The notes under the pieces were generated by a model that was not told where the DNA came from, ran no database searches, and saw only the letters and a list, made by a program, of their open reading frames with translations. DNA of 64,000 bases, taken from Candidatus Levyibacteriota bacterium (GTDB taxonomy: Bacteria > Patescibacteriota > Microgenomatia > Levybacterales > UBA12049). The stretch is from NCBI GenBank assembly GCA_016182185.1, contig JACOXU010000002.1, positions 86,874-150,873 of the forward strand, given 5' to 3'. Both the position numbers and the translations under genes were made by a program. Of this stretch, positions 3,726-27,648 are shown piece by piece (within the stretch, counting starts at the first letter, position 1; every line of letters starts with the position of its first letter).

Positions 3726-3801
3726 GATCGCATCCAAGCGTCCACAGCGACGATGCGGTTTGGCACCTCGATGTCGGCTCATCCTATCCTGGGGCTGAAG
3801 A

Positions 3802-3834
<33 letters not shown>

Positions 3835-4005: not shown

Positions 4006-4036
<31 letters not shown>

Positions 4037-4385
4037 AGCCTCCAAGATAAGATCTCGTTTTTCCCGCCCTCGGGTGGGATTAGACCCCTTGTAGACTACA
4101 AGGTTGATAGGCGGGCGGTGGAAGTGCCGTAAGGTATTGAGCCTACCCGTACTAATGGTCGAGAGTAGATTAAACCCTACACATCTTACCATTCGTCTTA
4201 GTTCATTTGAACTGCGACTTATGGAGCGATTGTTGAGGGGCAAAGCATTTTCTCTTCACTTTTGAGCGAGTCGATTGACGAGCGAAACCCGCCATGAATC
4301 GCAGTATGAGGCGTGAATGAATAATTCTGGAAAGCCGAATGCTAAGATGAGGAGGGTCGAGTACTTTAACTTTTGAAGAAAGAAA

Positions 4386-6843: not shown

Positions 6844-7047
6844 AAATTTACTTAATTATATCATTTAATCTAGCGCAGAAATGTATATTTGTATTGACTA
6901 AATCTTTTATAAATAGGTCAATACTATATTTAATGAATAAATTAAATGAACATTCATAAATTCCCCTAAAAGTACTTAAATTCTAATTGTTCTGGTTTTT
7001 ATTTTGTGATAGAATGGTCTTATCTTGAATTAAGGGGGAATAAATGA

Positions 7048-11715: not shown

Positions 11716-14700
11716 TTATTGATTCATGAAGGCAGAAGTTTTAGATAAATTGAGTTTACCAAAATTAATATTTTGTGTCAACCTAAAGAGAAGAAAAATA
11801 AAAGTTAATATGCTCAAAGATATGCCTAGATATTCTAGATATTGAGGAAGATAAAGGATGATAATTGACGATTGACCGATTTTCCAACCATTCTGCCAGT
11901 TGTTGACTTTAACATGATCTTTAATTTCTTTGCCAAAGAAGAAAGGAAAAGTGGCTGTCAACAGACTTTTGACCTTTGAGTTTTGAGTTTTGAGTTCTAC
12001 TTCGTATGCTTTCCAACCTTCATCGTAAGCCTGGGATAGTACCAAATAGGATCCTTTATCTGGGGGATTAAATCTGTAGAGAGAAGGATTTAATTTTTTG
12101 TAATCAAGCGGAACTGTTTCGGTATTTTTTGCAATTGTCGGAGTATCCGGATTTATAAAAATCTTCATATTTCTGATTGTTTTTTCAGGGAAAGGATATA
12201 AAGCGACTTTGGATATCTCTGCCTTTGCCTTTTCAACCCCAACCGATTTGACTACAAAATGAAATCCGTATCCGCTAAATACCTCTTCAGTTTTAGGAAC
12301 AATAAATACATTTTTTCCTTTTTTTGTTGAAAGTTTTGTTTCAAGCTCAGGCCGTTTTTCGAAAGTGTTGTCCATATAAAAACTTACAGGAAGACCGGAT
12401 TCGTGCTTACTGTCAACAATCAGAATGTACGATGCCTGATGAAAAAGATTATCTCTTGAAAATGCCATTTCAGCGGATGAATTTCCCGCTGCTTCAAAAG
12501 TTACTTTGTCTTTTCCCCGAACCATTTTTGAAAACACTTTATCAGGGTATAATTCAAATCCGCCAACATTTCTTCTAAGGTCATAATTTTCAGAGATTAT
12601 ATTATCAAAACCAAATGGGCCCTTAATTTTTTTTACTACAATTCTTAAATTATCAATTCTCTCTTCTTTTATAGGCATTAAAAATGTATAAATATTGATA
12701 TTTCTTGTATCGATCATGAAAGACTCTCCCCGTGTTCCGTCACCGACCCTTATGGTATTTGGATAATTGTTTAAAAGATATGACTTGACAATGCCGTTCC
12801 TAAATGGAACAGAATAATTTATATCCTCAAAGGTTATATGAGATATACTGCCAAGACTGGTTTCAATAACAGTTGGGTTTTCAACAATTTCTATTTCCCC
12901 CCCGTTTATATAAATAGTTGGGTAGATTAGATTTATGCTAATTTTTGCTCCTGAAGCTTTAACTTCAACTGGAATAAAAAATTCATTTGAATAAAGAGAA
13001 GGAATCTCAAGAACTGAATTTTTCCCCAAGGTTTTAGAATAAGGCTTTTTAGAAATAAATGTAATTGCATCTTTATCTTCCTTTATATCGAATTCTAAAT
13101 TTTCCTGCAGTTTACCTGAGAAGAGAGATGGCATTAGGTATGAAATCTTCGCAGAGTTTTCATCGACAATATAATTCCCCAAATTGTTGTAAATAACATC
13201 TTCTTTTTGAAATTTTGAAGAGGCATATATTTTCTCGGCTTTATCGATTGAAAATATCGGTGACGTATTTCCGTTGAATTCATAAATTATAAGCTTACCA
13301 AATATATTTTTCTTCACCAGAAGTTCACTTTTCTCGATGAATTCCCTAAGGCTGTTATAATTTATTGCGTAACGAGTCAGTGAATTTAAAACAGAAGTGT
13401 CAAGAAGAATATACTTGACGTTATATTTAAGAAGGGCATCTTTAAATAAGTTTTGGTCTCTCGTATCGACGGCATTTGCCATTTCATTATAGAACTGTTC
13501 ATTATAAGTACTCCATGGATCAAATGCACGCTCCATAAGAGGCTGGGGGATACCATACCAGAAAAAACCTGATCCTCTGTTGCCCCAATCTCTATACTGC
13601 CAGTTCCAGAACGAATACATGGGAAATACGGCAACTCTTCCGTTGTCATTTTGGTCTTTGAAGTAGGAAAAAGCCTCTTTATAATTTGATGGAACCTCGA
13701 GTCTTAGAAGCGGGCTGATAAAGTGACCCCTAAAGGCTGGAAGAGAAAGATAGAAAATAATAAAGATAAAAATTATCCCGAGAACAAAGCTTACCCTTCT
13801 TTTGTTAATCCAAGCAAGAATTGAATATAGCCCGAAAATAAGAAATAGGGAGAAGCAAAAGGCAAAAAGAATTATAAATTTGGTGAAGGGGAATCTGAAC
13901 GCTTCTCCAAGAACAGGGATAAATGTTCGAAAGAGATCATTAACCTGCGCAAAGAAAATAGTATTATTCGCAAGAAAAACAAAGGTAATCAACATCGAAA
14001 CTGCATAGGGAAGAAGGTTCCAGTTTTTTCTGACAAAAGTAATTATAATGCCAATTAGAGTAACGACGAGAATTAACAGAAAGCCAATCTGATAGGGAAG
14101 TGATTTATAATTCTGATACCAGCGAAGCATAAAAAGCACATCTGCCCCGAATGCCTGATCGTACTCAATGCTGTTTAACATGAATCCTTTAAGCGTCAGA
14201 ACGCTTTTTATATCTCCGTGAGCTTTATTTCTGTAGAAGATTTCCTCAGAGGAAAACTGATTAATTCTCGTGTTTCTTATCTCTGATTGGGTTTTAACTG
14301 CGCTGTAAGTATAAGGAAGAAGCCAGAATGCATTTGCCAAAAGTACGGTTAGAATTACCATAAGCCCTACTTTGATTTGTCCGGTTTTTATGATATGAAA
14401 AAGAGAAATTGTTCCCAAAAGAATAAGGAATACCAAAAATACCGTAGGGACAAATCCTTGAGGGCTGGCAAGAAGGGAAGCAAGAAAAAGTATCAAGTAA
14501 TTCTTGGGAGCTGGTTTTCTTAGGGCTTTTGTGATGAAAAGCGCAAGCCAGGGAAGTGCTGCAAAATGAAAAGCAAAGACTTCAAGAGGAGCAAAATACA
14601 TTTGAATAACTCCGAGGTTTAACATATAAAATAAGGCTCCCACAAAACAGAAGATTTTATTTTTGGTCTTCTCAATCTCGTTTTTGAAAATATAGCTTGA

Positions 14701-15012
14701 AAATATGAAGAAGCCTATACCTCCGACAAGATGAGTAAGCATGATAAAAGTAAAGCGCAAGAGATCTTGTGGCAGAATAAGAGACAGCAAAAAAATATAA
14801 ATAGTATGGAAAAGATTTGCAGCCTGAGCCATTCCATCAAGTACCCCTAAGCCTCTGTAATCTTGCCAGACACCGAAGAGTGACCGCTCAAGATTAAGTC
14901 CAAGATTGAATTCAGGCATTATATTGTCCCAGCCAATCAGATAGCGCCCGGGCGAATAATTTGTAATAAATAAAATGATCTCCAAAAGTATAAGGGCGGC
15001 TATGTAAATCAT
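11716..15012 (-). CDS. large polytopic membrane protein, putative GT-C-type glycosyltransferase (YfhO/AftD-like)
   Basis: 1098 aa, with about 12 N-terminal TM helices and then a large soluble domain. It is flanked by GT2 genes. The family assignment is an inference from architecture only. It carries an in-frame heptamer repeat (ELKTQNSKVKS). Confidence 0.4.
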   Translation of the reverse strand: MIYIAALILLEIILFITNYSPGRYLIGWDNIMPEFNLGLNLERSLFGVWQDYRGLGVLDGMAQAANLFHTIYIFLLSLILPQDLLRFTFIMLTHLVGGIGFFIFSSYIFKNEIEKTKNKIFCFVGALFYMLNLGVIQMYFAPLEVFAFHFAALPWLALFITKALRKPAPKNYLILFLASLLASPQGFVPTVFLVFLILLGTISLFHIIKTGQIKVGLMVILTVLLANAFWLLPYTYSAVKTQSEIRNTRINQFSSEEIFYRNKAHGDIKSVLTLKGFMLNSIEYDQAFGADVLFMLRWYQNYKSLPYQIGFLLILVVTLIGIIITFVRKNWNLLPYAVSMLITFVFLANNTIFFAQVNDLFRTFIPVLGEAFRFPFTKFIILFAFCFSLFLIFGLYSILAWINKRRVSFVLGIIFIFIIFYLSLPAFRGHFISPLLRLEVPSNYKEAFSYFKDQNDNGRVAVFPMYSFWNWQYRDWGNRGSGFFWYGIPQPLMERAFDPWSTYNEQFYNEMANAVDTRDQNLFKDALLKYNVKYILLDTSVLNSLTRYAINYNSLREFIEKSELLVKKNIFGKLIIYEFNGNTSPIFSIDKAEKIYASSKFQKEDVIYNNLGNYIVDENSAKISYLMPSLFSGKLQENLEFDIKEDKDAITFISKKPYSKTLGKNSVLEIPSLYSNEFFIPVEVKASGAKISINLIYPTIYINGGEIEIVENPTVIETSLGSISHITFEDINYSVPFRNGIVKSYLLNNYPNTIRVGDGTRGESFMIDTRNINIYTFLMPIKEERIDNLRIVVKKIKGPFGFDNIISENYDLRRNVGGFELYPDKVFSKMVRGKDKVTFEAAGNSSAEMAFSRDNLFHQASYILIVDSKHESGLPVSFYMDNTFEKRPELETKLSTKKGKNVFIVPKTEEVFSGYGFHFVVKSVGVEKAKAEISKVALYPFPEKTIRNMKIFINPDTPTIAKNTETVPLDYKKLNPSLYRFNPPDKGSYLVLSQAYDEGWKAYEVELKTQNSKVKSLLTATFPFFFGKEIKDHVKVNNWQNGWKIGQSSIIILYLPQYLEYLGISLSILTFIFLLFRLTQNINFGKLNLSKTSAFMNQ
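11974..11997. repeat. heptamer tandem repeat (ttttgag)x3, in-frame in the 1098-aa gene
   Basis: ctttgagttttgagttttgagttct. On the coding strand it reads caaaactcaaaactcaaag and encodes TQNSKVK. Confidence 0.7.
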
Positions 15013-15014: not shown

Positions 15015-15932
15015 TTAATTAACAGAAAAGGGAATAAATCTTTGCAAAGGAAGTATTAGATCTTTTATTTTTATGATGCCTTTTGAGATCAAATATAAAT
15101 CTTTCGTGACGCGCTCAGGCAAGGCAAAAAGCAGTACAGATTGAATAAAACTTATCAGTACATCTTTGGGTGTAGGTTTGTAGTTATAATGCATGAACAT
15201 CCTAAGCCTTATCTTTAAAGTATTCATGAATTTATTTTTTATATTCACAAATGTATCATTCGTACTATGAATCCTATAATAGACAAGTTTTTCCTCAAGA
15301 TTTGCAAATTTGAAACCCGTACAGATGAGTTTGAAGAAAGTATGATAGTCATTGTTGGCACTATATTTAATTTGATAATAAAATCTTTTAGCCGAAATTA
15401 AACGTCTTAACATGATACTCGGATGAATAATCGGGTGAAATCTTGCATACGATTTGTAAATGTCGTTGTTGGTCAGAGGCTCAAGTTTCTCGCCGATAAT
15501 AATTCCTCTCGTATTTATTACATGAGCATTAGACCCTACCATAAAGATATCAGGATTTTTTTCCAGGAATTCAACCTGCTTTTCGAGGCGGTCAATTCCT
15601 GAAATATCGTCGGCATCCATACGAGCGATATATTTTCCCCGGGCATATTTTAAGGCAATATTGGCACAAGAATCGCCGCCCTTATTTAAATTCTTTTTAA
15701 GCCTGATTGTTTTTATTATAGACGGATATTTTTTTTGGTAACTCTTGATTATTTTCCACGATTCATCCGTTGAGCAGTCGTCGACAATAATAAATTCAAT
15801 GTTTTTGTAAGTTTGATGAAGTATACTTTCGATTGCATCAGTCAAGAAACTTCCTGCATTGAAAACAGGCATGATAACAGAAACCAAAGGTTTGGTTTCT
15901 GTAATTTTGAATTTTGAATTTTGAATTTTCAT
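15015..15932 (-). CDS. family 2 glycosyltransferase
   Basis: VSVIMPVFNAGSFLTDAIESILHQTYKNIEFIIVDDCSTDES and MDADDIS. The N-terminus MKIQNSKFKI is encoded by an aaaattc heptamer repeat. Confidence 0.7.
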   Translation of the reverse strand: MKIQNSKFKITETKPLVSVIMPVFNAGSFLTDAIESILHQTYKNIEFIIVDDCSTDESWKIIKSYQKKYPSIIKTIRLKKNLNKGGDSCANIALKYARGKYIARMDADDISGIDRLEKQVEFLEKNPDIFMVGSNAHVINTRGIIIGEKLEPLTNNDIYKSYARFHPIIHPSIMLRRLISAKRFYYQIKYSANNDYHTFFKLICTGFKFANLEEKLVYYRIHSTNDTFVNIKNKFMNTLKIRLRMFMHYNYKPTPKDVLISFIQSVLLFALPERVTKDLYLISKGIIKIKDLILPLQRFIPFSVN

Positions 15933-15957
15933 TGAAAATTTTAAATTTTAAATTCCC
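15903..15957. repeat. heptamer tandem repeat (attttga)x4 plus (aaatttt)-type repeats at the GT2 start and upstream
   Basis: gtaattttgaattttgaattttgaattttcattgaaaattttaaattttaaattcc. Confidence 0.7.
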
Positions 15958-16367
15958 TTTTGAATCCGCAAGTTTACTTATGAACTCAAAAGGGAAGGTA
16001 TGCAGAAGCGTAAAGATCAAATTGATCAGTCTTGTTATCACCGCAATTGGTGAAGCAAGATTGAATCAACGATCCAAACACTACGCCTAAGCGCTTGTTG
16101 TGCCTTCCCAGGCTGTGTCTCGCCAAATGGCTGGACTTGAGAAACCCCCGGAAGGGGGAGCTGATAACGGAGCTACCCGTCTCAATACGCTGGCTGCGTA
16201 TCTTGCCTCATCTGCCCGCTCTTCAGATGAGTTTAAAAGATATATGCAGTGGGGAAGGAGGTAATACCCACTGCCGAATTGTCCCCGAAGGGGAAGACAT
16301 TTCTAGGTGGACTCCTAACGAGGGGTCGAAGACTCCACTATGTCCTCAGAAATTGTCGACCGACGAC

Positions 16368-17690
16368 TTAACGCCCAGCAGGGTTAGGGTTGGCGGCGTA
16401 TTCCGCTTCTGCTGCCTGTTGGCAGTTAGCCGGCCATGAATGGCTGTCTCCACCACCTTGGAAGTTTGGCTCCTCACCGGGCCAGAGCAGGAACTTGGTC
16501 ACCTTGGTTTGGTCGAATCCAGGCCAATTGCTCCACAGGTTTACAACCCGGAAGCTGTCTGTCGGACCAGGACTCCAGTTGGTGCCCGGTATAGGCTTGA
16601 AATCCTCGCGGATTCCGTCGGGACAGCTGGCCGCAGGAGCCGGTGCTGGCTGAGCCTGTTGAATAGACTGCTGTTGCGCTGGCGCTTGGGCCTGCGGTGC
16701 CGGTGCGGGAACGTTCGAACTGGTCGAAGCTGTTCCGGGTTGGAACTGCTGTCCGTCCCTCTGCATCGCAGCGTAGTCCTGTGCGAGTAGCGCGGCGATC
16801 GCGTCCTGGCTCATGTTGACGACGTTGGCTACCACCTTGGGAGGTGATGTGCGCAGGTCGACCACAAGGCCGGAGTGATCGCTGTCGAGCCGAGCCCGAG
16901 CGTATGCAGTCGCGTCAGCGACGTAGTCATACGTACAGCCAGGCGGGTTCCATTCCCAGAGGCTGCCGTAGCCGAAGGCAATGCTCGGAACGCCATCCGG
17001 ATTGGCAATCGGGTCCACGATGAAGCTGACGGCCTTGACCCCCACTTGTGGGTAGAAGTCAAAGTGCTGACCGCCGTGTCCGCCCATTTCGATGCGGTAA
17101 GGCGGAATAGGGTTCTGAATTGAACCCTCGCTCCATGTCCCCACCTTGTCACCGGGCTGGCACGGACCGGAATAGGTCGTGCTACCGTTGCCGCTGGTGG
17201 TGACTGTCGTGTTGCCGTTGCCGTTCCCGTTGCTGCCAGGGTAGCTGGTCGCGTCGTTCGGGTCGGTGCCGTTGGCGCTCTCGACCACGTCGGAGTATCC
17301 GTCGCCGTCTGAGTCGGACGTCTGCACGATCGCCTTGCCGTTCCCGCCGTCATCGATCAGGTCATCGTCCAAAAGGCCGACGTCCTCACCGAAGAACAGG
17401 AGAAAACCGAGGAGCGCAGCAGCACCCAGAACGAGTCCACCGACATAGCGCTTAAGCCATGGTCGTGCCGCAGGCGCTGTAGGCGTCCATCCTGCCGCGG
17501 TTGCCGCTGCCGCCGGAATCGCAGCTGTCATATCCGGCTGCATACCGATGTGTACCCGGAGCGCGTTACGGACATCGTCGATCGTTGCTCCGGCAACGAT
17601 AGGTAGGCCGAAGGTGACACGTACCGCATCAAGTTCCGCCTGTGTTCGCGCTGGATCATTGACCCAGTTTAAGAGCTGAGCCCAAGTCAT
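16368..17690 (-). CDS. membrane-anchored extracellular protein with Asp-rich calcium-binding (thrombospondin type 3-like) repeats
   Basis: Start moved to MTWAQLLNW, 7 nt after a GGAGGT site. One TM segment (VGGLVLGAAALLGFLLFF), then DDDLIDDGGNG and DSDGDGYSDVVESANGTDPND repeats, and a Gln/Pro/Ala-rich linker. Confidence 0.45.
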   Translation of the reverse strand: MTWAQLLNWVNDPARTQAELDAVRVTFGLPIVAGATIDDVRNALRVHIGMQPDMTAAIPAAAATAAGWTPTAPAARPWLKRYVGGLVLGAAALLGFLLFFGEDVGLLDDDLIDDGGNGKAIVQTSDSDGDGYSDVVESANGTDPNDATSYPGSNGNGNGNTTVTTSGNGSTTYSGPCQPGDKVGTWSEGSIQNPIPPYRIEMGGHGGQHFDFYPQVGVKAVSFIVDPIANPDGVPSIAFGYGSLWEWNPPGCTYDYVADATAYARARLDSDHSGLVVDLRTSPPKVVANVVNMSQDAIAALLAQDYAAMQRDGQQFQPGTASTSSNVPAPAPQAQAPAQQQSIQQAQPAPAPAASCPDGIREDFKPIPGTNWSPGPTDSFRVVNLWSNWPGFDQTKVTKFLLWPGEEPNFQGGGDSHSWPANCQQAAEAEYAANPNPAGR

Positions 17691-17835
17691 GTTTTTACCT
17701 CCATGACTATTCTTCACGGCTTTTGACCATGAAGTCTAAACGGGATTGATAATTGGTCCCAAACCCTCCCTAAGGGCTATAAGGTTTTACCTCCTATTTT
17801 TCTCTTTACAGTTAGCTGTAAAGGCTAGGCTTTCG

Positions 17836-17991
17836 TTAGGAGGTCGTTGAGGCCTCCATGTTGATTGTGACAGGACTCGGTTCACTTCCTGTGCCGCTTG
17901 AGCTATCCAGATCTCCGCCGAGGAGACCGGTGCACAGTGCGCCCAGAAGGATGAGGACTGCCAAAATCGCGATGATCATCACGTACCGCAT
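17836..17991 (-). CDS. small membrane peptide (51 aa)
   Basis: AAGGAGG lies 6 nt upstream of the ATG at 17989-17991. An N-terminal TM segment (MRYVMIIAILAVLILLGALCTGLL) is followed by a Ser/Thr-rich tail. It lies just downstream of the dockerin gene's stop. Confidence 0.4.
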   Translation of the reverse strand: MRYVMIIAILAVLILLGALCTGLLGGDLDSSSGTGSEPSPVTINMEASTTS

Positions 17992-18002
17992 GTTCTGCCT
18001 CC

Positions 18003-18749
18003 TTACGTCCATGCCCAGCAACCGCCCCATCCGTACGCATTGACGCCGGCATTCACCCAGTAGCTCTGGACTGTGCCGATGATCGGTACGGAGAACTTGA
18101 ACCGCGCTGAACTCCAGCTCTGGCCCCAGGTGCCGTAGTTGTACGGTCCAGAGGTGCTGAGATTGTCGACATCCCAGCCGAGCATAGAGCCGGCAGTTCG
18201 GAAAGGCGTGAACATGGTCATTACGCGCGAGCCGTCGTACAGAAACGACTGGTTGTGCTTGAGCCAAGCCACCTTCTGGCCGAAGATATTCTTGGCTGCA
18301 ATTTCACTCCAGCACGACCTGTAGTACGAGGCAGCCGCTGTTGGGCCTGATCCCTCGCCTGCGATCCCCACCAGAGAGCCTATTGTCTTCCCATTGGGAT
18401 CGACGAGAGCTTGGGTCGAGATCACGGCCTCTGGATCATCTGCCGGAACAGTATTGCCAGGAGCACAAAGTGCTTTCCCGGGCATTCCGGCCACGAAGCG
18501 CAGGATGCTGAGAGCGTCCACGGTATCGATGTCGACGTCGCAGTCTACATCAGCAAGCGAGAGGCAATCGCTGTAGTCCACAAGTCCTGCGGAGAACCGC
18601 AAGGCCAAGGACGCATCGACTGCACTCACACTGCTGTCGCAGTTAGCATCGCCGAGAACCGGCTGGTAGGGAGCCGCTTGAGCTTCGGCAATCATGAAAA
18701 AGCCGATCAGCCCGAGCAAGCTCGCCAGGATCAGTACTAGGTTTCTCAA
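18003..18749 (-). CDS. secreted dockerin-domain protein
   Basis: Signal peptide MRNLVLILASLLGLIGFFMIAEAQA. Two dockerin-type Ca-binding repeats (GDANCDSSVSAVDASLALRFSAG and DVDCDVDIDTVDALSILRFVAG). TTG start, with GAGG 7 nt upstream. Confidence 0.55.
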   Translation of the reverse strand: MRNLVLILASLLGLIGFFMIAEAQAAPYQPVLGDANCDSSVSAVDASLALRFSAGLVDYSDCLSLADVDCDVDIDTVDALSILRFVAGMPGKALCAPGNTVPADDPEAVISTQALVDPNGKTIGSLVGIAGEGSGPTAAASYYRSCWSEIAAKNIFGQKVAWLKHNQSFLYDGSRVMTMFTPFRTAGSMLGWDVDNLSTSGPYNYGTWGQSWSSARFKFSVPIIGTVQSYWVNAGVNAYGWGGCWAWT

Positions 18750-18971
18750 GATGGAACCTCGCTTTCCTTGCTAGGATTGTTTAGTTCCATCACTGATTGC
18801 CCCCGGTATTCAGTTGTGTTGTCTTGGAACTACCACCTCCTTTGCGGTAGATTTGTCGCTAGATGTCGGCGTTCCCGTCGTCCTGCTGAGCTATCGGGCC
18901 AAGCCAATCACTGAATAAGAATCCAGCAAGGAAACCAAGCGCGAACACACCTACATAGATGAGCCACTTCA

Positions 18972-19892
18972 TCAGTGTTTCCTCCGCTCGTACCTTGCCC
19001 ATACCCAAATTGCCGCCGTAATGATGAGCCCAAGACCCATTACTGCAGTAGGCCATTCAAGAGAACTTTCCCTTTCGGGATCGCCTCCTGTGGGCGGGAA
19101 GCAGCAGGGTGTAGGCGCCGGCGATCCCGTCGGTGTCGGGTATGGTGTACTCGACCACGGCGGAATAAGCGTAGGCGTTATGGTTGGGCTCGGCGCTGGT
19201 GTCCGTGTTGGCGTCTCAGTCGGCGTAGGCGTCACTGTAGGTGTCGCTGTAGCCGTAGGAGTCGCTGTCGGAGTTTCCGTCGGACTCGAACTCGGAGTCG
19301 CCGTAGCAGGCACCGTTGTTGTCGGCGTCGGTGTGCTGACAGGCGTCCGGGTAGGTGTCGCCGTAACAGTTGGCGTTTCCGTCGGGCTTGGTGTAGCCGT
19401 CGGAGTAGGCGTTGCCGTGGGTGTTGGCGTCACTGTGGGTGTCGCTGTCACCGTAGGCGTTGCCGTCGGCGTTTCCGTTGGTGTGGCCGTTGGCGTAGGA
19501 CTAGGCGTTTGGGTAGGCGTTACGGTCGGCGTCGCAGTAGGTGTACTAGTGGGTGTGCCACCAGCACAATGAGAAAGTTGAAGATGATTGCGATCATCCC
19601 CAGTCCCTACGTATGTCACGAACGCGACTGTTGAGCTTGTGATCGAACCGATTGAATCGGCTGACCACGAACCTTGGCCGCTCTGTGACATGGTGTACTG
19701 CGTACCATCGACCGTGAGAGTGGCTGACTCAACTCCAAAGGAGGGAGCCAGAACCCAGTGTCCTCCGTTTGCGCACGGAAGATTCTCTGAACCGTTGCCA
19801 GTCCAGGGAATCGTACCATCCGCATCGGCCTGTCCTGTGATCGCTACGACCGCGAAAACCATCGCTACAAGAGCGATGAAAATCTTAGTCAT
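18972..19892 (-). CDS. cell-surface protein with a ~170-aa Thr-Pro repeat linker and a C-terminal sortase-type sorting signal
   Basis: Signal peptide, a ~90-aa globular domain, then a (TPTATPTV)n linker. The C-terminus has FPPTGG, a TM helix and a basic tail (RYERRKH). AGAGG lies 6 nt upstream. Track ORFs 18975..19634 and 19021..19572 are antisense artefacts of the repeat. Confidence 0.6.
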
Positions 19893-20226
19893 TCCTGACC
19901 TCTTTCTTTCTCCGACAGCTGTCAGCTGTAGGGTAGGCTTGACAATAGTTTCGGGTCGCCGTTAGAATGAGTATCGCTTTACGCGTCCTATCGGGGGCGA
20001 AGGTTGGCACGGCGCTTGTTTGGGCGCTTAGCCTTCTTTCGCTTGTGTCCGGGTCCCCAACTCAAATTAAGCCTCCTTAGGCTTGACGATGGATTGTTGC
20101 TTTTGCCTCCTTTGGTCGGATTAGAGATCGCGAACGATCTCGCATATTGTTACCGTTGGTGTGGCGTCTGCGCAACTTCCCATTATTCGGTTGTTTGACG
20201 GGTTTCTTTTTCCCGGTCACATCCGA

Positions 20227-20394
20227 TATTCCTCCTTGTGTCTGTCTTTGAACTGGATTGTGTCATCATTGATGTCGTTATAGCCTCCGCCTCCGTTACG
20301 ATCCTCTCGTCTCCGCCTCATCGTCGCTCGCCGATCCGCTTGTTTGCGGTTCTGCTTTTCGTGCTTACGCTTGTTGCGGGACATGATGCTCCTT
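20227..20394 (-). CDS. small highly basic protein (55 aa)
   Basis: AAGGAG lies 4 nt upstream of the ATG at 20392-20394. Sequence MSRNKRKHEKQNRKQADRRATMRRRREDRNGGGGYND..., Arg/Lys-rich. Confidence 0.35.
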
Positions 20395-20576
20395 TACGGC
20401 TCGAGGTTTACTTCATCTGTTTGTGCGCGTGTCTCGTCCACCTCGCGGGTGAAGTTGACTTGAACGAACACAAGCTTGAGCAATTCCCAGTAGGCGCTGA
20501 AAAGGCTTTTCAAGCTCACCACCTTTCACCAAGTAAATAGTTGATTATTCGGTTGTGTCTGGTCGAGGGAAGGTTG

Positions 20577-20690
20577 CTACTTGTGCATCCTTCCGGATTT
20601 TCTCGGCCGTTTGGCGTCCTTTTTGTGTTCACGCCTCTCAGCCTTGGTCTGCCCGTTTTTCTTAGGCCTCTTGTGCATCCGTGATGCCAT
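20577..20690 (-). CDS. small highly basic protein (37 aa)
   Basis: GGGGGA lies 5 nt upstream of the ATG at 20688-20690. Sequence MASRMHKRPKKNGQTKAERREHKKDAKRPRKSGRMHK. Confidence 0.3.
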   Translation of the reverse strand: MASRMHKRPKKNGQTKAERREHKKDAKRPRKSGRMHK

Positions 20691-20999
20691 AAAATCCCCC
20701 TTTAGCCGAATACGCCTAAAAAGGCGAGTAGTGAGAACGAGATGAAAGCTGCACAGATCAGAAGCATCAGAAAGAGAACTTCACCGTCGCTCATCTCTTG
20801 TCCTTTCCCGCCAATTTTGGCGAAGCTAGCTTGAATTGACTTGTGTGCGCATCTTGTCAGCTTCATTTTCACGTCAAACGTGACTTTGCTGAAGCTAGAC
20901 TTGAGCGAACATAAGTTTCCTCCAAGCACCGGATGGATATGAGCATCACCTCCTCTCAGAGGTCTCTTCGCTTGCCGCGTTTGACGCGATTTGCGAAGG

Positions 21000-21167
21000 C
21001 TAGGTTGAGCTCGCCTGTGCGGCGAATGCTCCAGCTAGGATTAATAGGGCGGTAGCCATGAAGCAAACACCAGCGGATCCGTAGAACCTGCCGGCCAAAG
21101 CTGAGCCTGCGGCTGCGCCCGAAATGAAAGCACCGATGCCTACTATTGCAACTATCACGAAGTCCAT
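21000..21167 (-). CDS. small hydrophobic peptide (55 aa)
   Basis: GGAGGA lies 4 nt upstream of the ATG at 21165-21167. Sequence MDFVIVAIVGIGAFISGAAAGSALAGRFYGSAGVCFMATALLILAGAFAAQASST, predicted as two TM helices. Confidence 0.35.
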   Translation of the reverse strand: MDFVIVAIVGIGAFISGAAAGSALAGRFYGSAGVCFMATALLILAGAFAAQASST

Positions 21168-21796
21168 AACTTCCTCCGTATTCTTCGCTTGCGCGAAGCT
21201 AAATCCAGGTTGGTTATTCGGTTTTAGCCTGAGATCAGTGCTAGTACGAAGAGGGCGATTAGGATCAAGGTAGCCAAGGAATATACGAGTCCAGCCATAT
21301 GCGTTAGAATCGTAGCCTCGCTGTCAAGATCGTTATACCACTCGTACAAAGCACAACAGGTCTTAACATGTTTAACCCCCTTTAGGTTAATTAATTAGGG
21401 TTGATTTATCCGCCTGACTTTACCCTTCGGCCTTATCTCGCCAATTGGCGGATTCGGCTCAGGGAGCAGTCTTTGGCGGATTTCGTCACGCATAAATGCG
21501 TAACTTTATCTGCATACCTTGTTAAAGTGCGTCTCATAAAGAGAGTGGTCCTTGCGGATCAAACTCCTTAAGAGCGTACTGTTTCGCATCCGCCTCCGCT
21601 AAAGCTTCGGCGAGACAAACAAAATACCCGCAAAATGGGTACAAGGCGAAAAAGTTCAAGAATTCTATCAAATATTATAGGCTTTGTCAACTTAAATGAG
21701 TTCAAATCCCATTTTATTTTCTTATAGGATTTATTAGTGAAATTTATTTAAGATAGTTGTAAAAGTTAGGTAAAAGATTTAAGATTTAAGAAGTAT

Positions 21797-21868
21797 AAAT
21801 TTAAATTCTAAATTCGAAATTCTAAACTCTAAATAAATTACAAATTCAAAATCTTAAAATAATAAACA
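21797..21868. repeat. degenerate heptamer repeat array (aaattct/aaattca-type) upstream of the T4CP-like gene
   Basis: taaattctaaattcgaaattctaaactctaaataaattacaaattcaaaatcttaaaat. Confidence 0.65.
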
Positions 21869-21883
21869 AATTATAATTTAACC

Positions 21884-24052
21884 ATGAAGAATCAATTTGA
21901 TCGGGTTTTATTGGAAATCAAAACTTCAAGGACAGGGGAGGAAACTCCTGAGGCAATGGTCCAGTTTCTCTCAAGTCTTATCGGGCTTAAGAAACGTTAT
22001 TTAAATCTTATTTCATTTGCAATTCCGATCACACTTGAAATCGGAGTAATTGATCAGACAATTCATTTTTATATCTCTGCCCCAGCCACTCTTGCTACTT
22101 TTATAGAATCCCAGCTTGTTTCCCAGTATCCCAAGGCCTTGATAACCAAAACCCGTGATCCCTTGCCGGAAATGTTGTCAAATTCTTCATTGCTTGCGCT
22201 GGCTCAAATGAAACTTTCCTCAGGATTTATTTATCCAATCAAAACCTACAAAGATTTTAAAGATGTTGATCCGATGTCCTCAATCCTTTCTGTCCTTTCA
22301 AAAGCTCAGAAAGAAGACAAGGCTTGGATTCAACTAGTTCTTGTTCCGGTAGGGAATTCCTGGCAGGGAAAAGGCGAAAGAATAGCAACTGTCAAGAACA
22401 AAGACTCAGCCGGAGTAACTCACACCAATCCATATTCGAAGGTAATTATGGAAAAGATTAGCCTGAATGGCTTCAAAACTGCCATAAGGCTTGCTGTTTC
22501 TTCACATTCCAAAGAGAGAAGACTGCAGCTTCTTTACGAAATGGCCAATAGCTTCTCGTCCTTTAATAATCCTTCCGGAAACAGCCTTGGTTTCAGGCGT
22601 GTGCTTCTTTGGCAAAGAAGTAGGCTTATAAATGGAATGATCAAGAGAAATAAAAGATTTATTCCCTCCAGCCAAATTCTAAATGTAGGAGAGATCGCCA
22701 CTTTTTTCCATTTTCCGACTCAAAAATTCGCAACTCTTCATAATATTTCCTGGCACAAAACCATACTTTCCGAGCCTCCGCAAAATCTTCCGGTTGCAGA
22801 ATACTTGAGTCCTGAAGAGAAGGAAGAAACCAATTTTTTTGCGGCAACAGAATTCAAAAATAAAATTACAAATTTCGGAATAAAAACGACAGACCGAAGA
22901 AAGCATTTTTATATCATCGGAAAGACCGGAACCGGAAAATCGACTCTTATCGCGAATATGGGAATAAATGATATAAGAAATAAAAAGGGAGTTTGTATTA
23001 TAGATCCGCATGGAGATTTATGCGAGATTATCTTAAACTATATCCCATCCTACAGAGTGAATGATGTAGTTTATCTTGATCCGGCTGATGCTGCTCATCC
23101 TTTTTCATTAAATCCTCTTACGGTTGATAACCCCGAACAAAAGGAGCTGGTTGTCTCAGGAATTGTTGCCATCTTTCATAAACTTTATGGTCACACTTGG
23201 GGTCCGAGACTTGAGTATATCTTAAGAAACGCCCTTTTGTCAGTCATTAGTCTTCCTGATGCCACACTTCTTATGGTCCAGGATATTTTGACAGATGATG
23301 CTTTCAGAAGAAGAGTGATTGAAAGACTGACAGACAGGGTTCTTCGAAACTATTGGGTGAATGAATTCGAGAACATGCATCCTAGGATAAAAAGCGAATC
23401 AATTTCTCCGATCTTAAACAAAGTCGGGCAGTTTACTTCATCGCGTCTTATGCGAAATATTATTAAAAATCCACGGTCTACTGTAAATCTTGAGAAAATA
23501 ATGAACGAGGGGAAAATCGTGATTATGAATTTGTCCCAAGGAAGAATAGGGGAGGATAATGCCGCACTTTTGGGTGCCATGACAATCACCAAAATTCAGC
23601 TTGCGGCCATGAATAGAGTTTCAATGCCTGAGGCAGAGAGGAAGGATTTTTACCTCTACGTAGATGAGTTTCAAAATTTTGCCACAACCAGCTTTATTAA
23701 AATATTATCTGAAGCCCGCAAATACCGGCTTAACTTAATTCTGGCCAATCAGTATATATCTCAAGTGCCTGAAGATGTCAGAGCCGCAATATTTGGAAAT
23801 GTGGGAACGATGATGTCTTTTATAATCGGCGCTCAGGACAGTACCTATGTGGGTAAAGAATTTGGAGAAAGATTCAAAGCAGAAGATCTATTGCTGCTTA
23901 ATAACTATCAGGCAATTATCAAGCTTTCAATTGACGGAATCACCCAATCGCCGTTTTTGTGCAATACATTACCACTTCCCAAAAGTATTACTCAAAATAG
24001 GGAAAAGGTTATAAGATTATCTAGGGAGAAGTACACGAAACCCGTAGGGTAA
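21884..24052 (+). CDS. VirD4/TraG-family (type IV coupling protein-like) P-loop ATPase, orphan
   Basis: Walker A HFYIIGKTGTGKST is followed by IDPHGDL (matching the DPKGE/D motif of TraG/VirD4). Walker B is FYLYVDEFQNF. A ~330-aa N-terminal domain has no recognisable function. No other T4SS genes were seen in the window. Confidence 0.55.
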   Translation: MKNQFDRVLLEIKTSRTGEETPEAMVQFLSSLIGLKKRYLNLISFAIPITLEIGVIDQTIHFYISAPATLATFIESQLVSQYPKALITKTRDPLPEMLSNSSLLALAQMKLSSGFIYPIKTYKDFKDVDPMSSILSVLSKAQKEDKAWIQLVLVPVGNSWQGKGERIATVKNKDSAGVTHTNPYSKVIMEKISLNGFKTAIRLAVSSHSKERRLQLLYEMANSFSSFNNPSGNSLGFRRVLLWQRSRLINGMIKRNKRFIPSSQILNVGEIATFFHFPTQKFATLHNISWHKTILSEPPQNLPVAEYLSPEEKEETNFFAATEFKNKITNFGIKTTDRRKHFYIIGKTGTGKSTLIANMGINDIRNKKGVCIIDPHGDLCEIILNYIPSYRVNDVVYLDPADAAHPFSLNPLTVDNPEQKELVVSGIVAIFHKLYGHTWGPRLEYILRNALLSVISLPDATLLMVQDILTDDAFRRRVIERLTDRVLRNYWVNEFENMHPRIKSESISPILNKVGQFTSSRLMRNIIKNPRSTVNLEKIMNEGKIVIMNLSQGRIGEDNAALLGAMTITKIQLAAMNRVSMPEAERKDFYLYVDEFQNFATTSFIKILSEARKYRLNLILANQYISQVPEDVRAAIFGNVGTMMSFIIGAQDSTYVGKEFGERFKAEDLLLLNNYQAIIKLSIDGITQSPFLCNTLPLPKSITQNREKVIRLSREKYTKPVG

Positions 24053-24114
24053 ATTACAAATCTAAAATTACAAATTCCAAGCCTTTAGAATTTTGTATTT
24101 TGATTTTTGAATTT
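24051..24114. repeat. heptamer repeat array arranged as an imperfect inverted repeat, downstream of the T4CP-like gene
   Basis: aaattacaaatctaaaattacaaattcc...gaattttgtattttgatttttgaattt. The two arms are near reverse complements, which could form a long hairpin or terminator. Confidence 0.6.
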
Positions 24115-24144
24115 ATTCGGAGCTTGAGATTTTGAAATTGGTGC

Positions 24145-24828
24145 TTACTTTGAAGCTCTCTTTCTGAGGTAAAATCCTAATGCTCCTGATGGGATAAGTC
24201 CCAAGAGCCCAAGCATCTCAGGTCCGGTTGCCGGAGCCTTAGTTACCGGCTGAGATGGAAAGACTTTTAATCCTCCCTTGGTAGTAACTTCTCCGAGAAC
24301 AGGCTTTTCAATACAAAATTGAGCATTGTCAGAGCTTTCCTGACCGTTATTATTTGCAGTTGATTGATTTACAACGCAAGTTATTCCTTGAGAAAATTTG
24401 TCTTGGGTCTGAGTCTTACCAACAACTGTAAATGTTCTTGATTCTCCGGCTTTTAAGTCTCCAACCTCAAAAGTAAGAGTTTTGGAATTTGAGTCAAAAT
24501 TTCCCGTTCCTGAAACAAAATCAACAAATTGAGGAAGAATATCTTTTACTGTAACTTTTGAAATAGTATTTCCTCCATTGTTGGTGACAGTAATTTGGAA
24601 GGTTACATTTGACGAAGGAGAGTGTTTTGGATCATTTACTCCAAGATTGTCGACAAATGATCCTGTCTGGGGATTTTGGACTGTTTTGTTAATAAAGACA
24701 TTGCCAACCTGAATACAGGTTTCTCCACCACCATAAATTGGCTGACACGATACATCAGCATTTGCTGAAACACTCATTGCCATAAATAGCACTGAAGACA
24801 AAAATAAAGATGAAATGATTTTCTTCAT
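24145..24828 (-). CDS. secreted surface protein (DUF11/CARDB-like beta domain) with a C-terminal sortase-type sorting signal
   Basis: Signal peptide. NVTFQITVTNNGGNTISKVTVKDILP is a DUF11-like repeat. The C-terminus has APATGPE, a TM helix (MLGLLGLIPSGALGFYL) and RKRASK. Confidence 0.5.
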   Translation of the reverse strand: MKKIISSLFLSSVLFMAMSVSANADVSCQPIYGGGETCIQVGNVFINKTVQNPQTGSFVDNLGVNDPKHSPSSNVTFQITVTNNGGNTISKVTVKDILPQFVDFVSGTGNFDSNSKTLTFEVGDLKAGESRTFTVVGKTQTQDKFSQGITCVVNQSTANNNGQESSDNAQFCIEKPVLGEVTTKGGLKVFPSQPVTKAPATGPEMLGLLGLIPSGALGFYLRKRASK

Positions 24829-25051
24829 ATTTCGACTTTGCTCAATATCCAGATATTAAAAATGATACTGAAAACTTTATCAAGTTGGGCAGTATCATTA
24901 AGATAGCCCGAAGAATATCATATATTATAGGTTATGTCAAGTGTCCCATTTTTAGTTCTTGACCCCACATCATTTTCCTTTCGCCTTTTCAATTCTTTTC
25001 GAATACGGCTCAAGGGGCATAAGATCGAGGGGTCTGCGAGGCAAGTGCCTC

Positions 25052-25080
25052 TTGACAAAGGAATAGGGATGTGGTGTAAT
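25052..25080 (+). promoter_or_regulatory. sigma70-like promoter (TTGACA-17-TGTAAT) in the long rho leader
   Basis: TTGACA at 25052-25057 and TGTAAT at 25075-25080. A ~140-nt leader precedes rho, as is typical for rho autoregulatory leaders. Confidence 0.4.
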
Positions 25081-25222
25081 ACACTTGGTTTAAATATTTC
25101 CTTCTTGGAAAGAATCCCGCTTAAGAATAACTTTCACGGATCCATGTTTAAGAGTCTTATTTAGCATCACGCTTATACAATTATTAAATTAATCTCTTTC
25201 TCTTTCCAAGCATTTTAAAGAT

Positions 25223-26476
25223 ATGCCAGTCAGAAAATCTACAATTTCCAAAAAGCCTACGGTTACTGATATTGTCGGTGAACCGGAGCTAACCAAAGTA
25301 AAAGCTCAGACAATTGAGGAGCCTCAGTCTGTCGAACCAGCTGTGCCTCAGATTAGAGTCGAACCTTCCGTACAGACCCAAGAAGTCTCAGGAATTTTAG
25401 ATATTCAGCCTGAAGGACACGGATTTTTACGTCCGAAGTTTATCCCATCAACGCGGGACGTGTATATTTCCCAATCTCAGATTAGAAGATTTCTTTTGCG
25501 ACCGGGTGATTTAGTCGAAGGAGTCGGCCGGCCTCCCAAGGATACAGAAAGATATTTTGGGCTTTTGAAAGTTGAGAAAGTGAACAACGTCCCCGCTGAC
25601 GATTCTATGAGGAGACCTTATTTTGATGACCTTACTCCGATTTATCCTAAGAAACAGGTTGTCTTAACGACAGGAAAAACCCCTCTCTCGACAAGGATCA
25701 TAGATTTGGTAGCTCCAATCGGATTTGGGCAAAGAGGAATGATCGTCTCGCCCCCTAAGGCGGGAAAAACAACAATTCTCAAGGAATTAGCAGCCGGAAT
25801 TTCCCAGAATTTTCCCAAGGCACACCTTATGGCAGCTCTCATCGGAGAAAGACCAGAGGAGGTAACTGACATAAGCACTTCAGTTAAGGGAGATGTAGTT
25901 GCTTCAAACTTTGATGAACCGCCTGAAAAACAGACGAAGGTGGCAGAAATAACTTTGGATCGGGCAAAGCGTTTGGTTGAACAAGGAATTGATGTAATCA
26001 TCCTTCTTGATTCAATTACCCGTTTGGCTCGAGCATATAATCTTTCAGTTGCGCCGTCCGGAAGAACTTTGTCCGGTGGTTTTGATCCTGCGGCTCTTTG
26101 GCCCGCCAAACGTTTCTTCGGCGCAGCAAGAAGCTGTAAAGAAGGAGGATCCCTAACTATTATAGGAACTGCACTCGTTGATACAGGTTCACGCATGGAC
26201 GATTTAATTTATGAAGAATTTAAAGGTACCGGAAACATGGAGCTGCACCTCGACAGAAAACTCTCAGACAGAAGAATTTTCCCAAGCATAGATGTAGAGC
26301 GTTCTGGGACAAGACAGGAAGAGCTTATTCTCCCTGAGATAGAGCTTAAGAAGGTTGTTACCATGCGAAGAATGCTTGATATGTTATCTCCTGAGGAAAG
26401 AACGAGTGCCTTAATTGATCGCTTGGCAAAAACAGAAACCAACGAAGCCTTCCTCTTATCTCTAGGAAAGGGATAA
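25223..26476 (+). CDS. rho: transcription termination factor Rho
   Basis: The N-terminal extension is followed by an RNA-binding domain (GFGFLR-like GHGFLRP) and a RecA-like ATPase (PPKAGKTTILKELA). The C-terminal Rho signature is LDRKLSDRRIFPSIDVERSGTR. Confidence 0.9.
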   Translation: MPVRKSTISKKPTVTDIVGEPELTKVKAQTIEEPQSVEPAVPQIRVEPSVQTQEVSGILDIQPEGHGFLRPKFIPSTRDVYISQSQIRRFLLRPGDLVEGVGRPPKDTERYFGLLKVEKVNNVPADDSMRRPYFDDLTPIYPKKQVVLTTGKTPLSTRIIDLVAPIGFGQRGMIVSPPKAGKTTILKELAAGISQNFPKAHLMAALIGERPEEVTDISTSVKGDVVASNFDEPPEKQTKVAEITLDRAKRLVEQGIDVIILLDSITRLARAYNLSVAPSGRTLSGGFDPAALWPAKRFFGAARSCKEGGSLTIIGTALVDTGSRMDDLIYEEFKGTGNMELHLDRKLSDRRIFPSIDVERSGTRQEELILPEIELKKVVTMRRMLDMLSPEERTSALIDRLAKTETNEAFLLSLGKG

Positions 26477-26694
26477 AACGCCTTGGGTTGACAGATCAGT
26501 TTTAATCTGTTAACCTTTTTATTTGAGCTATGCGCAAGAACCGTCTTTCGTACTTTTTTTGGACATTTTTCCCTCAATTCATATCTGAATTTATCATTTT
26601 CTTCCGCTTTCTACTCTCTTATCTTAAGAAAAAAATTATTACTTGGTACATTTTCTTTGAAAGGAACAAGAATATTCTGGTTAAGTTTTTTACA

Positions 26695-27648
26695 ATGAAA
26701 AGAGGCCGTTACAATCGGTCTTTTTTGCATTTTTCAGCCGCCGGTGTATTGGGCATTGGAATAATTTTGGCTCCCTTTCTGGCGAGTACCTATCCGGTTT
26801 TTTCGACCAATGCATCAGTCAAAATAGATTCCCCGTCAACAAGTCAATCAATTATAGTTGGGGAGAACTCGCTTCAGACTGAAATTTCTGAGAAGCCAAG
26901 AGATAAGATTATAATTTACACTGTTCAAAAGGGAGATACCGTATCGACAATTGCCCAGAAATTCGGAATATCAGCCAATACTGTACGTTGGGAAAATGGT
27001 CTTTCAAATGACAATCTTTCTGTCGGAGATGAATTAAGGATACTGCCAGTAACAGGAATTGCTCACAAGGTAGTAAAAGGTGATACAGTTTATTCTATTG
27101 CGAAGAAGTTTGATACAGAAGCCCAGAGGATCGCAGACTTTCCCTTTAATGATTTTGCCAATCCTGAAACTTTCTCACTCGTCGCAGGGCAGATTCTTAT
27201 CGTTCCTGATGGTGTAAAGCCCTCTGAACAGCCATACATTAAACGACAAGTATATATTGCCCAAGGTCCTGTATCTGTGTCTTCAGCCGGATTCACATGG
27301 CCGGTCCGCGGAGTTGTCAGTCAGTTTGCCACATGGTATCACATGGCAATCGATATCTTGTCTCCCATTGGAACGCCAATTGTTGCCGCACAAGACGGGG
27401 TAGTTTCAAGAACAAGTGTAGGCACTTGGGATGGAGGGTATGGAACAAGTGTTTATATCTCAGGCGACACATATGGATCTCATTACGCACACATGAGCGC
27501 TGTAAATGTATCTGCCGGGGATAAAGTTGCGGCAGGAAAGACAGTTATTGGTTGGATAGGAATGACTGGAAGAACAACCGGTGCTCATGTACATTTCGAG
27601 ATCTCCCGAAACGGAACTTTGATCAATCCTCTTCCGTTCCTTCAGTAG
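26695..27648 (+). CDS. LysM-domain M23 family peptidase (cell-wall endopeptidase)
   Basis: Two LysM repeats (YTVQKGDTVSTIAQKFGIS... and HKVVKGDTVYSIAKKF...). C-terminal M23 motifs (HYAHMS...GMTGRTTGAHVHFEI). Start chosen at MKRGRYN, followed by a TM segment. The track ORF begins at 26530 with an implausible N-terminal extension. Confidence 0.7.
   Translation: MKRGRYNRSFLHFSAAGVLGIGIILAPFLASTYPVFSTNASVKIDSPSTSQSIIVGENSLQTEISEKPRDKIIIYTVQKGDTVSTIAQKFGISANTVRWENGLSNDNLSVGDELRILPVTGIAHKVVKGDTVYSIAKKFDTEAQRIADFPFNDFANPETFSLVAGQILIVPDGVKPSEQPYIKRQVYIAQGPVSVSSAGFTWPVRGVVSQFATWYHMAIDILSPIGTPIVAAQDGVVSRTSVGTWDGGYGTSVYISGDTYGSHYAHMSAVNVSAGDKVAAGKTVIGWIGMTGRTTGAHVHFEISRNGTLINPLPFLQ

Follow-up and report, generated by a model that had tools for sequence, protein, structure and literature searches.

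A GC-rich island of predicted surface-protein genes with variable content at a conserved position in Levybacteria genomes

Candidate Phyla Radiation (CPR) bacteria are thought to live attached to other cells, and their surface molecules are almost unknown. Among described systems, the flexible surface-structure islands (O-antigen and capsule loci, marine metagenomic islands) combine a fixed chromosomal site between conserved flanks with content that varies among close relatives and conflicts with the flank phylogeny, surface-exposed products, glycosyltransferases nearby and an odd base composition; they usually have a lower GC (guanine plus cytosine) content than their genome and encode mostly sugar-pathway enzymes. 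We analysed a 64,000-nucleotide stretch of a Candidatus Levyibacteriota genome (contig JACOXU010000002.1, assembly GCA_016182185.1), hereafter the window, in which a 5.6-kb island (16050-21640) shares these general traits but lies about 18 points higher in GC than its surroundings, encodes secreted or anchored proteins with Shine-Dalgarno (SD) sites that are rare in the rest of the genome, and is framed by a promoter, a leader and a covarying inverted repeat. Its three largest genes encode a 248-aa dockerin-module protein, a 306-aa protein with a Thr/Pro linker and a 440-aa membrane protein. An earlier sequence-only reading of the window took the block for either a recent horizontal acquisition, possibly a cellulosome-like piece from a Gram-positive or Chloroflexi donor, or an assembly chimera. 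Both the high GC content and the use of SD sites are stable traits of the locus, and we favour, with somewhat more confidence than doubt, the view that the island is a resident, clade-wide, cassette-swapping operon of exported surface proteins in a fixed frame.

Composition, occurrence and age of the island

The window surrounding the island is core chromosome, with 23S and 5S rRNA genes, tRNAs, and genes for S1, a RadA-like ATPase, Rho, a LysM-M23 protein, LeuRS, ArgRS, ComEA and ComEC, MreB, NDK and a sortase. Two proteins of a 'Candidatus Levybacteria bacterium' metagenome-assembled genome (MAG), HYT08_03955 and HYT08_03950, have the same sequences as the 248-aa and 440-aa island proteins, respectively. 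GC content is 0.552 in the island (0.576 at 16050-19900 and 0.498 at 19901-21640) as compared to 0.369 in the remainder of the window, computed without rRNA. The sequence-only reading had described a rise from about 37% to 60-65%; the jump itself stands, the higher values being reached only in 200-nt peaks. It had also held that uniform composition under windowed analysis would speak against an island, and in that analysis the GC content of the island has a z value of 11.4 when set against 85 other windows of 5.6 kb (mean 0.371, sd 0.016, maximum 0.405). The tetranucleotide and codon-usage comparisons it proposed set the block apart in the same manner: the tetranucleotide L1 distance to the remainder is 0.646 for the island and 0.137 +/- 0.019 for other windows, and GC at third codon positions (GC3) ranges from 0.52 to 0.68 among island genes, all other open reading frames (ORFs) of 100 aa or longer in the window falling between 0.27 and 0.41. 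The sharp borders were recovered as steps within 100 nt, the resolution of the scan, from 0.25-0.38 to 0.50-0.58 at about 16050 and from 0.51 to 0.27-0.16 at about 21640. As GC-richness extends to GC3 and to the non-coding leader and 3' region of the island, the shift is regional and more than an amino-acid effect. Short AT-rich repeats of the AAATTC/TTTGAA type were observed just outside both borders (15904-15955 and 21790-21861) in roughly inverted orientation; the left set is coding sequence for the N-terminus of the neighbouring family 2 glycosyltransferase (GT2), and Logan contigs break within these border repeats.

All convincing island genes are on the minus strand with GGAGG, AAGGAGG or GAGGT-type motifs 3-12 nt upstream, ten genes carrying such sites. 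Essentially one of the approximately 45 ORFs outside the island has an SD-type motif upstream of its first start codon, so that the contrast in translation signals drawn from the sequence alone is upheld, and the SD enrichment recurs in homologous islands of other lineages.

Nine Levybacteria or Levybacteria-like lineages were examined: the window, L005/L006 (GCA_040960375 and GCA_040960175), L020 (JGI Ga0210057), L025-28 (GCA_964360265 from Hainich and two SRA runs), L029, L061, L062, L063 and L064-73 (Rifle RIFCSPLOWO2_02_FULL_37 and others). The GC-rich block is present in all nine, with a GC content of 0.5-0.68 in a background of 0.31-0.42, and is weaker in L061 (about 0.49). Except in L061, where a GC-rich block is present but the flanking genes differ, it lies between a CLIPPER gene, with or without a DUF87/TraG-type ATPase gene, and a pair of genes encoding GT2 and a large membrane protein. 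L064 was reached through the flanking GT2 alone and also carries the block, a case unbiased by the search with island proteins. Orientation is identical in all nine lineages and cross-locus matches are all collinear. A second short GC-rich patch (about 0.51) was seen in the distant lineage L063 at 7001-7600, over a 155-aa ORF upstream of the CLIPPER gene.

Within this frame the gene content differs between lineages. The window shares its dockerin-module gene and a gene for a 51-aa transmembrane (TM) protein with L005, L008 and L020, its Thr/Pro sortase substrate with L029 and L008, and its small basic proteins with L005, L020 and L029. Members of the C-terminal family of the 440-aa protein are encoded in the window, in L025, L029, L061, L062 and L063, and where the L008 contig ends. 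Other cassettes include Band_7 (L008 and L026-28) and He_PIG (L062), and the closest overall layout to the window island is that of L029. Phylogenies of island and flanks disagree: the ATPase of the window is 90% identical to that of L020 and 80% identical to that of L005, an order reversed for the 248-aa protein (33% and 73%, respectively). Because content varies within a fixed frame and conflicts with the flank phylogeny, we conclude that cassettes have been replaced or exchanged. One apparent variant, between the Rifle contigs L064 and L066, is a gene-calling difference, as the two are collinear with 98.2% identity.

Both explanations offered by the sequence-only reading fare poorly against these data. 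A GC-rich fragment joined to an AT-rich contig by misassembly or misbinning would account for the sharp borders, and low-complexity AT-rich repeats at both of them could cause mis-joins. However, Logan contig SRR12113420_194100 (11,202 bp) is 100% identical to window positions 15908-27109, so that both junctions lie within it, the left one only about 140 bp from its end. Independent assemblies of at least eight other datasets, made with different assemblers, yielded the same architecture with its conserved promoter, repeat and hairpin, the block being found in eight other lineages from other projects. We therefore consider the probability of a chimera to be very low. Recent acquisition from a GC-rich, SD-using Gram-positive or Chloroflexi donor draws on the strong contrast in composition, codon usage and SD sites, and on dockerin-module matches in Clostridia and one Dehalococcoidia MAG. 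These matches, the only ones returned by a scan of GTDB species representatives, involve the ~60-aa dockerin module alone, indicative of a domain-level likeness rather than of a donor; a metagenome scan added one more Levybacteria locus. The suggested donor search with the large proteins produced none. Full-length homologues (6 for the 248-aa protein and 16 for the 440-aa protein, the family of the latter comprising 236 cluster representatives matched in a profile search of metagenome proteins) lie in AT-rich CPR DNA wherever their contigs reach past the island, as they do in all cases but L008 and some short contigs, and no homologue was placed in a GC-rich genome in protein sets of 5.8 billion and 1.84 billion.

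The age of the block argues in the same direction. Synonymous divergence (dS) of island genes is 0.5 between L005 and L008, approximately 1.0 between the window and L005, and 1.6 to >3 for the others, that is, near or at saturation in a block shared by nine of nine lineages; island GC3 nevertheless stays at 0.62-0.72 in every lineage, despite this divergence, and the flanking genes have saturated dS and a GC3 of about 0.3. We infer that most of the GC excess of a neutral import predating the lineage splits should by now be gone. Marks of insertion (tRNA fragments or direct repeats) had been proposed for the junctions, but no tRNA occurs within 6 kb of the island, no direct repeats lie at its borders and no mobility domains or integrase were found, a short inverted repeat being present there instead. 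Comparison with 50,697 phage records and 72,556 plasmids (blastn of the island, tblastn of the 440-aa protein) gave no match. The cellulosome-like module also finds no backing, as the large ORFs of the 64-kb window encode no cohesin or glycoside hydrolase. A recent acquisition from such a donor is accordingly very unlikely.

Several points weigh against the resident, cassette-swapping operon that we favour. Most homologous loci were found via island proteins and are a biased sample, one lineage having been sampled via its flank, and no island-free relative (empty site) was seen among the nine lineages, so that an insertion event of whatever age may underlie the block. Parsimony-polarised counts of GC-to-AT versus AT-to-GC changes in island genes are 56:25, 63:47 and 101:62. 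As the flanks show the mirror-image excess, the known parsimony artefact may be at work in these counts; island GC may be decaying slowly. The dockerin module is without a cohesin partner in the window, and the 3' end of the 16S rRNA lies outside it, the anti-SD sequence of the host being inferred from the literature. Loss of the anti-SD motif has been reported in a subgroup of Parcubacteria, and Microgenomates are not among the CPR groups for which its absence has been reported (PMC9297842). Given that this loss is reported only for part of the Parcubacteria, the host ribosome can probably use the SD sites of the island.

Predicted products and neighbouring genes

Under the favoured reading, transcription would start at the right-border promoter, pass the structured leader and cross the minus-strand genes (Table 1), whose SD sites would serve GC-rich, more structured mRNAs in a genome otherwise relying on AT-rich leaders.

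Table 1. Positions in the window of the island genes, the elements framing them and the adjacent genes
Feature	Position	Strand	Basis or remark
55-aa small membrane protein gene	21000..21167	-	GGAGG 5 nt upstream
30-aa small hydrophobic protein gene (tentative)	20702..20794	-	AAGGA upstream
37-aa highly basic protein gene	20577..20690	-	Kept in L005
42-aa small protein gene	20394..20522	-	Kept in L029 and L008
55-aa Arg/Lys-rich protein gene	20217..20384	-	SD motif; homologues in L029 (58% identity) and L005
47-aa basic protein gene	20077..20220	-	Homologues in L020 (73%) and L029 (52%)
306-aa secreted protein gene (predicted sortase substrate)	18972..19892	-	Sequence reading and homologues
37-aa single-TM protein gene	18859..18972	-	ORF with SD-type motif
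248-aa secreted dockerin-module protein gene	18003..18749	-	Family-level Pfam and profile matches
51-aa single-TM protein gene	17836..17991	-	Directly 3' of dockerin-module gene; also in L005 and L008
440-aa membrane protein gene	16368..17690	-	Pfam, profile search
Sigma-70 promoter TTGACA-17 nt-TAGAAT with TG extension	21662..21690	-	11/12 consensus matches; reads into island
GC-rich 5' leader, two to three conserved hairpins, GNRA/UUCG-type loops	21521..21655	-	Alignments and RNAalifold
Right inverted-repeat copy AAGGTATGCAGA, inward	21509..21520	-	12-mer scan
Second leader module	21394..21508	-	Kept only with L005 and L064
Weak terminator-like hairpin CCCCC-TTCC-GGGGG then TTTCT, end of island operon	16140..16158	-	Read from sequence
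Left inverted-repeat copy AAGGTATGCAGA, inward (TCTGCATACCTT on island-sense strand)	15995..16006	+	12-mer scan
Long hairpin, loop AAAC, between left repeat copy and GT2 start codon	15953..15996	-	RNAalifold
GT2 glycosyltransferase gene	15015-15932	-	AT-rich, directly downstream of island; start codon 15932
1098-aa polytopic membrane protein gene	11716-15012	-	AT-rich, next after GT2
DUF8128-DUF87-TraG-D_C ATPase gene (TraD/VirD4/HerA-like, DUF87/TrwB/TraG-type)	21884-24052	+	Right flank, host composition
DUF11/CLIPPER surface protein gene, APATGP-TM-RKRASK tail	24145-24828	-	AT-rich right flank

The 306-aa protein would be attached to the wall by the sortase of the genome. It comprises a Sec-type signal peptide (ending ADA), a small N-terminal domain, a Thr/Pro linker of ~170 aa, CCFPPTGG, a TM helix and a basic tail (RYERRKH), a layout already recognized by the sequence-only reading and readable in the sequence; homologues carry CCLPPTGG (L029) and CCLPVTGG (L008), and so the canonical LPPTG and LPVTG motifs. 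The native sortase gene that had been proposed as its counterpart lies outside the island (57100-57810, plus strand) and was confirmed by Pfam (Sortase, E=3.7e-18); in L061 a sortase gene adjoins the island. The layout of the protein is textbook for a sortase substrate, and the native enzyme could plausibly act on it.

The 248-aa protein would be secreted, having a Sec-type signal peptide (ending AQA) followed by a dockerin-type double Ca-binding module (residues ~30-95) and a C-terminal beta-rich domain. The two dockerin repeats first read from the sequence hold at the family level: Pfam Dockerin_1 reaches only E=0.079 with the window protein alone but is matched by four of the six family members (best 9e-6), and a comparison of the family profile with solved dockerins gives E=1e-4 to 0.05. 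The C-terminal 150 aa have no relative in Pfam, NCBIfam or PDB, and a structure model of the protein (pLDDT 34) is unusable. The 440-aa protein would stay in the membrane beside several small membrane and basic proteins, and consists of a cytoplasmic SAP/HeH-like three-helix domain (residues 1-50), a TM helix, one Ca-binding thrombospondin type 3 (TSP3) repeat and two conserved extracellular domains. Its anchoring in the membrane is in keeping with the sequence-only reading; the several TSP3-like repeats proposed there reduce to a single TSP3_bac repeat (Pfam, E=2e-7). The SAP/HeH fold is usually tied to DNA or RNA binding, and its occurrence on a surface-protein scaffold was unexpected.

A run of very basic, Arg/Lys-rich proteins of 25-55 aa is encoded at 19988-20690 on the minus strand. 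Homologues of four of the five occur in other islands; for the fifth, a 25-aa ORF (19988-20065), none was found there. Scans with the 47-aa and 55-aa ORFs gave no PHROG match, and for the 55-aa ORF no Pfam match either. The small basic proteins may bind nucleic acid. A second near-consensus promoter, TTGACA-18-TAGAAT, was noted inside the island on the plus strand (19939-19968) and would give an RNA antisense to the small-protein region.

An integrated small virus, plasmid or satellite might be suspected from this gene set, as the gene sizes and one-strand layout resemble those of small filamentous or pleomorphic viruses, the large anchored protein is 'spike-like', and the small basic proteins and SAP/HeH domain suggest nucleic-acid binding. 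Such an element appears most improbable: the island has no replication, packaging or integration gene, a fixed chromosomal position and a host-type promoter, and, in addition to the absence of matches in the phage and plasmid collections reported above, scans of IMG/VR with a protein profile and the repeat motif found no relative. The single PHROG match is to the low-complexity Thr/Pro linker, and the 31 matches of a 16-mer scan were judged to be due to chance without inspection.

Downstream of the island, the GT2 gene and the gene for the 1098-aa membrane protein form a pair that is syntenic in L025, L029, L062, L063 and L064. By position only, the pair resembles the Gram-positive pairs of lipid-sugar synthase and membrane glycosyltransferase, which glycosylate Thr/Pro-rich proteins; homology gave no confirmation. 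O-glycosylation of the Thr/Pro linker by the two adjacent products is possible. Island products are presumably expressed and located at the cell surface, where, under diversifying selection, they might help the bacterium to attach to a host cell or a substrate. The ATPase gene on the right flank matches the host in composition, and L025, L062 and L063 lack it at this position; it is therefore not regarded as part of the island.

Three observations concern the wider neighbourhood. A giant protein of 1419 aa (31359-35618, minus strand) has two tyrosine-recombinase-type SAM-like N-terminal domains and a Peptidase_G2 segment, and is syntenic in L025 (1-1545); no catalytic recombinase domain is recognizable in it. 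Genes of the 23S_rRNA_IVP family, encoding four-helix bundles, lie ~130-2,000 bp upstream of the island in L020 (3444-3818, 124 aa), L029 (1896-2288) and L061 (2443-2808). We take this family to be the one that includes the Avd proteins of diversity-generating retroelements, and such an element was considered on account of these Avd-like genes beside three loci, but was rejected, as no reverse transcriptase and no template/variable repeat pair were seen. The 23S rRNA match of the window (1128-4173) spans 3046 nt relative to a model of 2925 positions, making a small insertion possible; insertions are a known trait of CPR rRNA genes.

Promoter, leader and inverted repeat framing the island

Hardly a base differs between the right-border promoter of the window and its counterparts in L005, L020, L029 and L064. 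The leader that follows ends in an invariant TTAACAAGGTATGCAG and shows a few compensatory pairs, derived from only four distinct sequences. At the other end of the island, the weak terminator-like hairpin is kept in L029, L064, L005 and L025, although a terminator scan did not call it. The hairpin before GT2 has 15 predicted pairs, 10 of which show compensatory double changes (RNAalifold, seven lineages), and with the GT2 start 10-20 nt further on it could be an attenuator, terminator or translational element for the GT2 operon. Leader, 3' region and GT2 hairpin have no Rfam match at gathering thresholds and no credible one at E<=5; the leader, this hairpin and the inverted repeat are candidate new regulatory or recombination elements.

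The 12-mer of the inverted repeat occurs in exactly two copies in the 64-kb window, inverted to each other, with no further copy inside the island or elsewhere, and no target-site duplications were found beside the copies on reading the sequences. A matched inverted repeat of 10-12 bp is present in all seven lineages for which both ends were recovered, with cores GTATGCAG/CTGCATAC in the window, L005, L029 and L064, GTATACAG/CTGTATAC in L025 and L063, and GTATATAG/CTATATAC in L062; only the leader-side copy was seen in L020, whose contig ends inside the island, and in L061. The two central positions vary by lineage (GC, AC or AT) and are always complementary between the copies of one locus, the outer positions being conserved. 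Since the repeat types follow the flank and promoter types, the repeat is part of the locus rather than of the cassettes.

Two explanations of the repeat were weighed, both compatible with the favoured reading. The first is a role in RNA, in which the leader copy AAGGUAUGCAGA would pair with UCUGCAUACCUU just upstream of the GT2 hairpin in a read-through transcript, forming a processing or stabilising stem around the island mRNA comparable to the stalks of rRNA operons; in a variant, the leader would act on the GT2 5' region and so couple expression of the glycosylation genes to that of the surface proteins. Compensatory changes of both the G-C to A-U and the C-G to U-A type are consistent with pairing, as is extra complementarity beside the core in some loci, the predicted duplex of L063 reaching -36.6 kcal/mol against -15.5 +/- 2.9 for shuffled sequences and those of other loci being ~1 to 4 sd better than shuffles (L062 only ~1 sd). 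The left copy moreover abuts the strongly covarying hairpin just upstream of the GT2 start, and the onset of the GC-rich zone roughly coincides with the predicted transcription start. A perfect core of only 10-12 bp, however, would have to close a loop of 2.5-5.5 kb, complementarity of the flanking bases is inconsistent among loci, and the terminator-like hairpin stands between the last island gene and the left repeat copy. We regard an RNA role as possible though doubtful.

The second explanation is site-specific cassette exchange, a natural analogue of recombinase-mediated cassette exchange, in which the two inward-facing repeat copies would serve as recombination sites and a recombinase encoded at another location would swap or occasionally invert the cassette, perhaps after DNA uptake. 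This explanation addresses the variation of the locus and fits with a resident operon. Recombinase sites have crossover regions with a variable but matched centre, and the repeat has this form, with conserved outer and locus-matched central positions. Upstream of the right repeat copy, lineages show a similarity of 0.57-0.86 to one another, which drops to 0.16-0.35 downstream, exactly at the repeat. A 155-bp block that begins at the -35 element and ends a few bases beyond the repeat is 100% identical between L005 (4316-4470) and L020 (3949-4103), whose ATPase genes share ~73% DNA identity. The competence genes ComEA and ComEC are present in the window, and the conserved 1419-aa protein with its two integrase-type domains is encoded ~10 kb away. 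On the other hand, none of the loci was found to have a catalytic-domain recombinase nearby, and a single orientation is seen in the nine lineages, with no inversion. Both compensatory changes are transitions, which would also be expected of an RNA helix evolving via G-U intermediates, and ordinary homologous recombination would also produce a comparable fall in similarity if it took place in the conserved flanks. On balance we consider site-specific cassette exchange at the repeat rather unlikely. Bolder, and less probable again, is the idea that the promoter, leader and two covarying repeats form a dedicated expression slot, into which GC-rich, SD-equipped cassettes pass between cells by an unrecognised site-specific mechanism with no adjacent integrase. 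If true, this would imply a cassette pool that keeps its own base composition long enough to saturate synonymous sites, and a genome that holds a small compartment under different compositional rules.

Significance and comparison with known systems

Whatever the mechanism of exchange, the locus encodes proteins that are predicted to be exported and anchored and are probably fast-changing, at a recognizable clade-wide position, and as such offers an entry point for the study of attachment and strain diversity. It is also a counter-example to a common line of argument, being a sharp compositional island with seemingly 'foreign' translation signals that is neither recent nor demonstrably foreign. 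That a block of 3-5.5 kb remains ~18 GC points above its neighbours through saturating divergence poses a question about mutation, recombination and selection in small genomes.

Comparisons can be drawn at the level of individual proteins and of the locus as a whole. Non-cellulosomal dockerin proteins include SEML1_0315, an envelope protein with a dockerin domain that is essential in a cultivated Saccharibacterium (PMC10633639). The 248-aa protein shares with it a double Ca-binding dockerin-type module and predicted secretion from a CPR cell, but is without an identified cohesin partner or carbohydrate-active domain and has a C-terminal domain without a recognizable relative. The 306-aa protein has the signal peptide, linker, (L/F)PxTG motif, hydrophobic helix and basic tail of Gram-positive sortase-anchored Pro/Thr-linker proteins, together with a sortase in the genome; it differs in that the window copy has FPPTG after a conserved Cys-Cys, the neighbouring native CLIPPER protein using APATG, and its cleavage is a prediction.

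At the level of the locus, the operons of Gram-positive S-layer and major surface proteins are similar in having a strong promoter, a long structured leader, a strong ribosome-binding site, signal peptides, wall anchoring and glycosylation genes nearby. These operons have one dominant gene, whereas the island has several cassettes and no detected S-layer or SLH domain. An invertible DNA segment is likewise bounded by inverted repeats, but the island is seen in one orientation and has no dedicated recombinase within its loci. Integron arrays and shufflons share with the island an outside promoter, co-oriented variable cassettes and boundary repeats with a matched variable core; they differ from it in having an adjacent integrase and, between cassettes, attC sites, neither an integrase nor repeated palindromic sites between genes being found at the island, where two inverted sites instead surround the whole array.

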